A stretch of 64,000 nucleotides of DNA from Escherichia coli (lineage in GTDB: Bacteria > Pseudomonadota > Gammaproteobacteria > Enterobacterales > Enterobacteriaceae): the NCBI RefSeq assembly GCF_003334355.1, contig NZ_QOWP01000018.1; one strand, given 5' to 3'. A program made the position numbers and the translations under genes. Below, piece by piece: positions 52,196 through 52,240 of the stretch (position 1 is its first letter; each line of letters begins with the position of its first letter). The notes beneath the pieces were generated by a model that had not been told where the DNA came from, did not search any database, and was given only the letters and a program-made list of their open reading frames with translations.

Positions 52196-52240
52196 CGGGG
52201 CGCATTATGCGTATAGAGCCTTGCAGCGTCAACCTCTTTT
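52196..52240 (-). promoter_or_regulatory. Stringent-type sigma-70 promoter of the tRNA operon
   Basis: Minus strand reads TTGACG (52227-52232), 17-nt spacer, CATAAT (52204-52209), then GC-rich discriminator GCGCCCC; A/T-rich block immediately upstream of the -35; about 35 nt upstream of the first tRNA. Confidence 0.55.

Follow-up and report, generated by a model that had tools for sequence, protein, structure and literature searches.

The tyrT, rrnB P1 and leuQ promoters are classic stringently controlled promoters, tyrT being activated by Fis from upstream and rrnB P1 being preceded by upstream Fis sites. Lamond and Travers reportedly established in 1985 that the discriminator of tyrT mediates stringent control, and Haugen et al. 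are said to have found in 2006 that a C at the second position past the -10 hexamer contacts sigma region 1.2 poorly and shortens the life of the open complex. Nakajima, Ozeki and Shimura (Cell, 1981) reportedly gave the first sequence of the promoter of the metT tRNA operon, an operon described as supB-E. In E. coli this operon is essential, and every gene for elongator tRNA-Met, tRNA-Gln and tRNA-Leu(UAG) belongs to it (PMC11480407). Using a leader probe, Mohanty and Kushner detected its polycistronic precursor, which is processed by RNase P and RNase E, and the terminator of the operon is described in the same paper (PMC2241853). More generally, the promoters inhibited by ppGpp/DksA typically have G+C-rich discriminators and short-lived open complexes (PMC9304144).

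The metT promoter and its operon

The element studied here lies in the window, by which we mean the whole 64-kb stretch of E. coli DNA that was analysed. It is the already-known promoter of the E. coli metT operon, metTp, and its class is that of the classic stable-RNA promoters, which makes the finding real but ordinary. Between asnB and metT the sequence shows no difference from K-12 MG1655 (100% identity), identity to E. coli chromosomes with asnB, tRNA-Met, tRNA-Leu and tRNA-Gln annotations reaches 99.9% over a 1-kb region, and the neighbours miaB, ubiF, asnB and nagD are arranged as in K-12 (miaB-ubiF-tRNAs-asnB-nagD). The promoter is located between asnB and the first tRNA-Met of a Met-Leu-Gln-Met-Gln operon, and it looks unannotated because RefSeq gives no feature there. 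The 160 nt found 5' of metT are present as a single copy in 5425 of the 5426 complete E. coli genomes and are at least 99% identical in 4872.

On the minus strand, the sequence reads ...GAGCAATTTTCCTTGAAAAAGAGG TTGACG CTGCAAGGCTCTATACG CATAAT GCGCCCC G CAACGCCGATAAGGTATCGCGAAAAAAAAGAT / GGCTACGTAGC... (Table 1). The preliminary description had proposed TTGACG, a 17-nt spacer, CATAAT and GCGCCCC, preceded by an A/T-rich UP-like block, and our reading of the minus strand together with a consensus scan recovered the core elements exactly where it had placed them. The UP-like block is present as well, with an A+T content of 68% versus 49% for the window. Taken in the -59..-38 register, counted from the -35 hexamer, GAGCAATTTTCCTTGAAAAAGA agrees with the UP consensus at 10 of its 14 specified positions, a score that just 0.27% of the window's 22-mers attain. 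TTGACG-N17-CATAAT stands 33-69 nt upstream of tRNA-Met and thus combines a sigma-70 hexamer pair, a functional spacing and a stable-RNA gene directly downstream. Its score in the consensus scan is 10 of 12 positions with a spacer of 17, and it is the sole consensus promoter match on either strand between 50500 and 53500. Two other -35-like sequences were considered and rejected as promoters. The upstream TTGACG at 52307-52302 has no acceptable -10 at a distance of 16-18 nt, none being found by the scan, and conservation there is limited to TTG, at the edge of a G-N13-C 15-mer; TTGACA at 52436 lacks a -10 partner in both the read and the consensus scan.

Table 1. Promoter elements, tRNA genes and hairpins of the metT locus, in window coordinates
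Feature	Position	Strand	Description or basis
Upstream 15-mer A, candidate Fis site	52291..52305	-	GACGAATATAGCGCC; G-N13-C, A/T-rich centre, centred ~-102
Upstream 15-mer B, candidate Fis site	52271..52285	-	GTTCGCAACCTAACC; G-N13-C, centred ~-82, 20 bp from A
UP-element-like block	52235..52256	-	GAGCAATTTTCCTTGAAAAAGA; T-tract, then A5 tract ending 3 nt before the -35
-35 hexamer TTGACG	52227..52232	-	5/6 consensus positions; minus-strand read and consensus scan
Spacer, 17 nt, without TG extended -10 motif	52210..52226	-	Minus-strand read and consensus scan
-10 hexamer CATAAT	52204..52209	-	5/6 consensus positions; minus-strand read and consensus scan
Discriminator GCGCCCC	52197..52203	-	G+C-rich, C at 2nd position past the -10; minus-strand read
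Predicted transcription start G	52196	-	8 nt past the -10, +/- 2 nt; see text
Initial transcribed block, +1..+16	52181..52196	-	GCAACGCCGATAAGGT; conservation in orthologues
5' leader of primary transcript, 33 nt	52164..52196	-	Removed by RNase P; read and tRNA calls
tRNA-Met(CAU)	52163-52087	-	ARAGORN, Rfam, K-12 alignment
tRNA-Leu(UAG)	52078-51994	-	ARAGORN, Rfam, K-12 alignment
tRNA-Gln(UUG)	51970-51896	-	ARAGORN, Rfam, K-12 alignment
tRNA-Met(CAU), metU	51880-51804	-	ARAGORN, Rfam, K-12 alignment
tRNA-Gln(CUG)	51756-51682	-	ARAGORN, Rfam, K-12 alignment
Rho-independent terminator of the operon	51651..51676	-	Scan; same sequence as in K-12 downstream of glnX
G+C-rich 14-bp hairpin just 3' of the asnB stop codon	52503..52536	-	Scan scored the + strand; hairpin palindromic

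The hexamer pair occurred once in the 3-kb scan, versus 2.5 expected, and pairs matching at least 5/6 and at least 5/6 positions number 3 in the 64-kb window, versus 5.05 +/- 2.1 expected from 200 Markov-1 simulations; on its own, the hexamer pair does not rise above chance. A pair followed by GCGCC is found once in the window, versus 0.005 expected (1 of 200 simulations), and a pair followed by any all-G/C 7-mer is expected 0.07 times (at least one in 14 of 200 simulations). The composite motif, its placement directly ahead of the first tRNA, and a phylogenetic footprint (see below) go far beyond chance when taken jointly.

The metT promoter shares with those of tyrT, rrnB P1 and leuQ the sequence GCGCC, with a C at the second position past the -10, and differs from all three in its optimal 17-nt spacer, the others having 16 nt (Table 2). 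A tRNA is found downstream of both metT and tyrT promoters, which are identical over the discriminator and the start (GCGCCCCGC, GCGCCCC-G-C), and the tyrT leader also resembles that of metT in carrying CCGATAAGG at about +7, one base out of register. The rrnB P1 promoter has an A/T-rich UP region where metT has its UP-like block, but its discriminator is 8 nt long and it starts with an A 9 nt past the -10, whereas a G start at 8 nt is predicted for metT. The leuQPV (leuV) promoter has the same -35 hexamer as metT, TTGACG, and a GCGCC discriminator followed by G; leuQPV and metT were also singled out together for deaminase peaks at the TSS and for an upstream Fis site (PMC9122604).

Table 2. 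The metT promoter and three characterised stable-RNA promoters (K-12 DNA)
Promoter	-35	Spacer (nt)	-10	Discriminator	Following sequence
metT	TTGACG	17	CATAAT	GCGCCCC	GCAACGCCGATAAGG
tyrT	TTTACA	16	TATGAT	GCGCCCC	GCTTCCCGATAAGG
rrnB P1	TTGTCA	16	TATAAT	GCGCCACC	A
leuQ	TTGACG	16	TAGAAT	GCGCCTCC	G

The operon downstream differs from that of K-12 in having five tRNA genes (51682-52163) instead of seven, the promoter itself being no different. The tandem Gln pairs glnU/W and glnV/X each lack one member, leaving clean gaps of 109 nt and 112 nt, as expected from recombination between repeats. Other E. coli genomes carry two or three Gln genes, so the copy number is variable within the species. The D-loop of metU contains a C here and a T in K-12 (CAGTCGGT versus CAGTTGGT), so that the two Met genes of this strain differ by 1 base; in other genera, the first Met gene reads CAGCTGGT. 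At the other end of the intergenic region, the hairpin at 52503-52536 is probably the terminator of asnB and would shield the promoter of the tRNAs from transcription arriving from upstream, and the presence of such a strong hairpin after asnB argues against read-through as a source of the tRNAs. In the scan it scores as a terminator on the + strand, although there is nothing obvious to terminate on that strand, and the T-run on the asnB strand lies partly within the stem.

Conservation of the promoter across Enterobacterales

Loci were retrieved with a pattern covering the metT-leuW junction, one genome being kept per species, and the 160 nt 5' of tRNA-Met were extracted. Since the pattern lies wholly inside the two tRNAs, the selection is unbiased by the promoter. 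It returned at least 120 loci, all from taxa with tRNA ends identical to those of E. coli, the only ones that such a pattern finds. The alignment consists of the 110 distinct upstream sequences among the matches listed, from which we took a subset of 24 representatives less than 80% identical to one another. The families represented among the matches listed are Enterobacteriaceae, Yersiniaceae, Hafniaceae, Morganellaceae, Budviciaceae, Erwiniaceae and the Sodalis group.

Among the matches listed, the -35 hexamer is TTGACG in 105 of the 110 sequences and TTGACT in 5, the consensus A being found in none (0/110); the -10 hexamer is CATAAT in 108/110, the discriminator is GCGCCCC in 109/110 and the spacer is 17 nt long in all 110, while its sequence drifts. 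For the 24 representatives, again among the matches listed, the mean majority frequency is 0.97 for the -35 hexamer, 0.99 for the -10 hexamer, 0.99 for the discriminator and 0.94 for +1..+16; it is 0.62 for the spacer sequence, 0.66 for the 3' part of the leader and 0.44 for the far upstream region. The elements conserved this deeply are exactly those of the promoter, and together they form a textbook phylogenetic footprint in which the non-consensus bases (the first C of the -10 and the last G of the -35) are themselves maintained.

In the orthologues, 7-9 of the 14 UP consensus positions are matched in the register of the UP-like block; the AAAAA tract is invariant in the representatives among the matches listed, and the T-tract before it is moderately conserved. 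In the far upstream region, strong conservation is confined to two G-N13-C 15-mers, 20 bp apart. The outer G and C of 15-mer A are invariant and its interior is variable in the 24 representatives among the matches listed; 15-mer B has an invariant outer G and an outer C conserved at 90% or more in the same representatives, and across the 110 sequences, also among the matches listed, both bases reach at least 98%. This arrangement, with G and C at +/-7, is the shape of a Fis site, a degenerate motif, and we regard 15-mers A and B as candidate Fis sites on the basis of their sequence and conservation. The block could instead be, or overlap, the Lrp site. A Fis site about 70 nt upstream of metT has been reported (PMC9122604).

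The two clearest departures from the core, among the matches listed, are those of two insect symbionts. The secondary endosymbiont of Ctenarytaina eucalypti (1.44 Mb) has kept GTTGACG and carries TTAAAAT followed by the A/T-richer GCCAAGTC, and Candidatus Fukatsuia symbiotica reads CATAATTGCGCTCC, with a 1-nt insertion. These departures may reflect a relaxed selection on stringent control in reduced genomes. In Enterobacter mori LMG 25706, the -10 hexamer is CATAAG, without the normally essential final T, in an otherwise intact promoter; the change is either a true down-mutation or a mistake made in sequencing an old draft assembly. Two Met-Leu junctions per locus were found in Budvicia diplopodorum, Tatumella sp. 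JGM91 and Enterobacteriaceae bacterium B14. The second copy of B. diplopodorum has its own diverged promoter (TTGACG ... GATAATGCGCTGC), and in the other two the second tRNA-Met is placed behind another tRNA, without a promoter of its own. A contig labelled Chryseobacterium sp. 18061, a Bacteroidota genus, carries a metT promoter and tRNAs of the Enterobacteriaceae type, likely through assembly contamination or mislabelling.

Start site and initially transcribed bases

Reading the minus strand, G 52196 is the sole purine at 6-9 nt past the -10 hexamer. The tyrT G aligned with it has the same context and is the pppG 5' end of the tyrT precursor. We infer that transcription starts at or beside G 52196. 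A synthetic metT precursor was designed to start CGCAACGCC..., with a primer from 52197, within 1 nt of this position (PMC3985628). Bhagwat and colleagues obtained uracil peaks in vivo with AID and APOBEC3A, which are specific for single-stranded DNA, over the transcription initiation signals of metT, and the bases hit by APOBEC3A are in the loop, CCC, of a hairpin predicted as GCG-CCC-CGC immediately upstream of the 'expected TSS' (PMC9122604). These deaminase peaks constitute in vivo evidence of melted DNA at the metT start region. No mapped 5' end of metTp was found in the papers and TSS tables examined: PMC4681348 and PMC6131387 gave no match, PMC3415461 provides TSSs for protein-coding genes only and goes straight from ubiF to asnB with none at metT, and neither metT nor its promoter sequence is present in the Salmonella ppGpp dRNA-seq tables (PMC3293720).

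The +1..+16 block is conserved like the hexamers and is continuous with the discriminator, without a break, in the 24 representatives among the matches listed; the leader as a whole is 27-34 nt long in the orthologues, among the same matches. A conserved structure of the leader RNA was considered as the origin of this conservation and rejected, RNAalifold giving no consensus structure for 52 distinct leaders, and the hairpins predicted for single sequences differ between lineages. That GCAACGCCGATAAGGT (52196-52181) is a separate functional element, undescribed for metTp, is an idea that we hold only tentatively and think rather unlikely. The block could provide a downstream DNA contact that tunes the lifetime of the open complex or promoter escape. 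It could instead contain a leader-RNA motif, which would be sequence-specific because the block has no conserved secondary structure.

Regulatory inputs and alternative readings

A second-hand regulator listing (Table 2 of PMC10100675) names Fis as activating and both Lrp and ppGpp as repressing metT-leuW-glnUW-metU-glnVX; under stress the tRNA precursors of the metT operon drop together with rRNA and other tRNA operons (PMC10100675). The preliminary description went further and considered control by growth rate and ppGpp/DksA as 'read directly from the sequence'. The assignment to the stringent stable-RNA promoters is supported by homology, by conservation and by the regulator listing, but the wording was overstated, since, according to a recent review, it 'remains challenging' to tell from a sequence which sign ppGpp/DksA control will have (PMC9304144). 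No direct ppGpp, DksA or growth-rate assay of metTp, in vitro or with a reporter, was found in the papers examined. The optimal 17-nt spacer should stabilise the binding of RNA polymerase, and the ppGpp sensitivity of metTp cannot therefore be assumed to equal that of rrnB P1, tyrT or leuQ.

We consider it very likely that metTp is the sigma-70 promoter of the metT-leuW-glnU-metU-glnV operon and that it functions according to the following mechanism. The RNA polymerase holoenzyme would bind TTGACG-N17-CATAAT, with the alpha C-terminal domains probably contacting the conserved A-tract/T-tract of the UP-like block and with Fis probably activating from one or two upstream sites (~-82 and ~-102). 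Based on GCGCCCC, which has a C 2 bases past the -10, and on the non-consensus first base of the -10, we infer a short-lived open complex, through which ppGpp/DksA, the level of the initiating GTP and negative supercoiling would all influence the output. The synthesis of the tRNAs would then track growth rate and stop in the stringent response. The transcript would extend from about G 52196, through the 33-nt leader and the five tRNAs, to the hairpin at 51676-51651, and RNase P and RNase E would then release the tRNAs.

A genuine metT promoter might also respond mainly to Fis and supercoiling (and Lrp) rather than directly to ppGpp/DksA, with the discriminator acting chiefly as a supercoiling sensor. 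The two conserved Fis-like G-N13-C 15-mers upstream are in line with this proposal, as is the spacer of 17 nt versus 16 nt in the classic ppGpp targets; against it, the discriminator is identical to that of tyrT, where it reportedly mediates stringent control. The upstream Fis site already reported (PMC9122604), the presence of Fis and Lrp in the regulator table (PMC10100675) and passages of PMC8422995 that tie the discriminator to supercoiling sensitivity also speak for such inputs, but ppGpp figures as a repressor in the same table and the two mechanisms can coexist, so that we give this proposal a small probability. We find it very improbable that metTp is a strong, essentially constitutive housekeeping promoter whose G+C stretch is kept for start-site selection or as a part of the leader. 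The unbroken conservation to +16 would suit such a promoter, the discriminator being perhaps just part of a larger block, and ppGpp control is poorly predictable from sequence (PMC9304144). However, ppGpp is a listed repressor and the tRNA precursors of the operon drop with rRNA and other tRNA operons under stress (PMC10100675), the discriminator is common to three regulated stable-RNA promoters, and in the C. eucalypti endosymbiont the G+C discriminator is gone although the -35 and a -10-like hexamer remain, which fits a dispensable regulatory element rather than a structural one.

Hexamer pairs as good as this one occur at chance frequency in the window, and one may ask whether metTp is a mere chance consensus match, with transcripts of the operon beginning at another point within the 52164-52540 intergenic region or reading through from asnB. 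We regard this as next to impossible: 0.005 GCGCC composites are expected in the window, seven families among the matches listed share near-invariant elements and one spacer length, the consensus scan detected no second promoter-like site in the intergenic region, asnB is followed by a strong hairpin and deaminase footprints are found at metTp itself (PMC9122604).

Our favoured reading remains that of a stringently controlled sigma-70 promoter. By driving an essential operon, metTp helps to couple translation capacity to nutrient supply, and our analysis does not change that picture. The phylogenetic footprint makes a small addition to it, in that Enterobacterales, among the matches listed, hold fixed the hexamer bases that depart from consensus, the exact spacing of 17 nt and the first 16 bases of the transcript.
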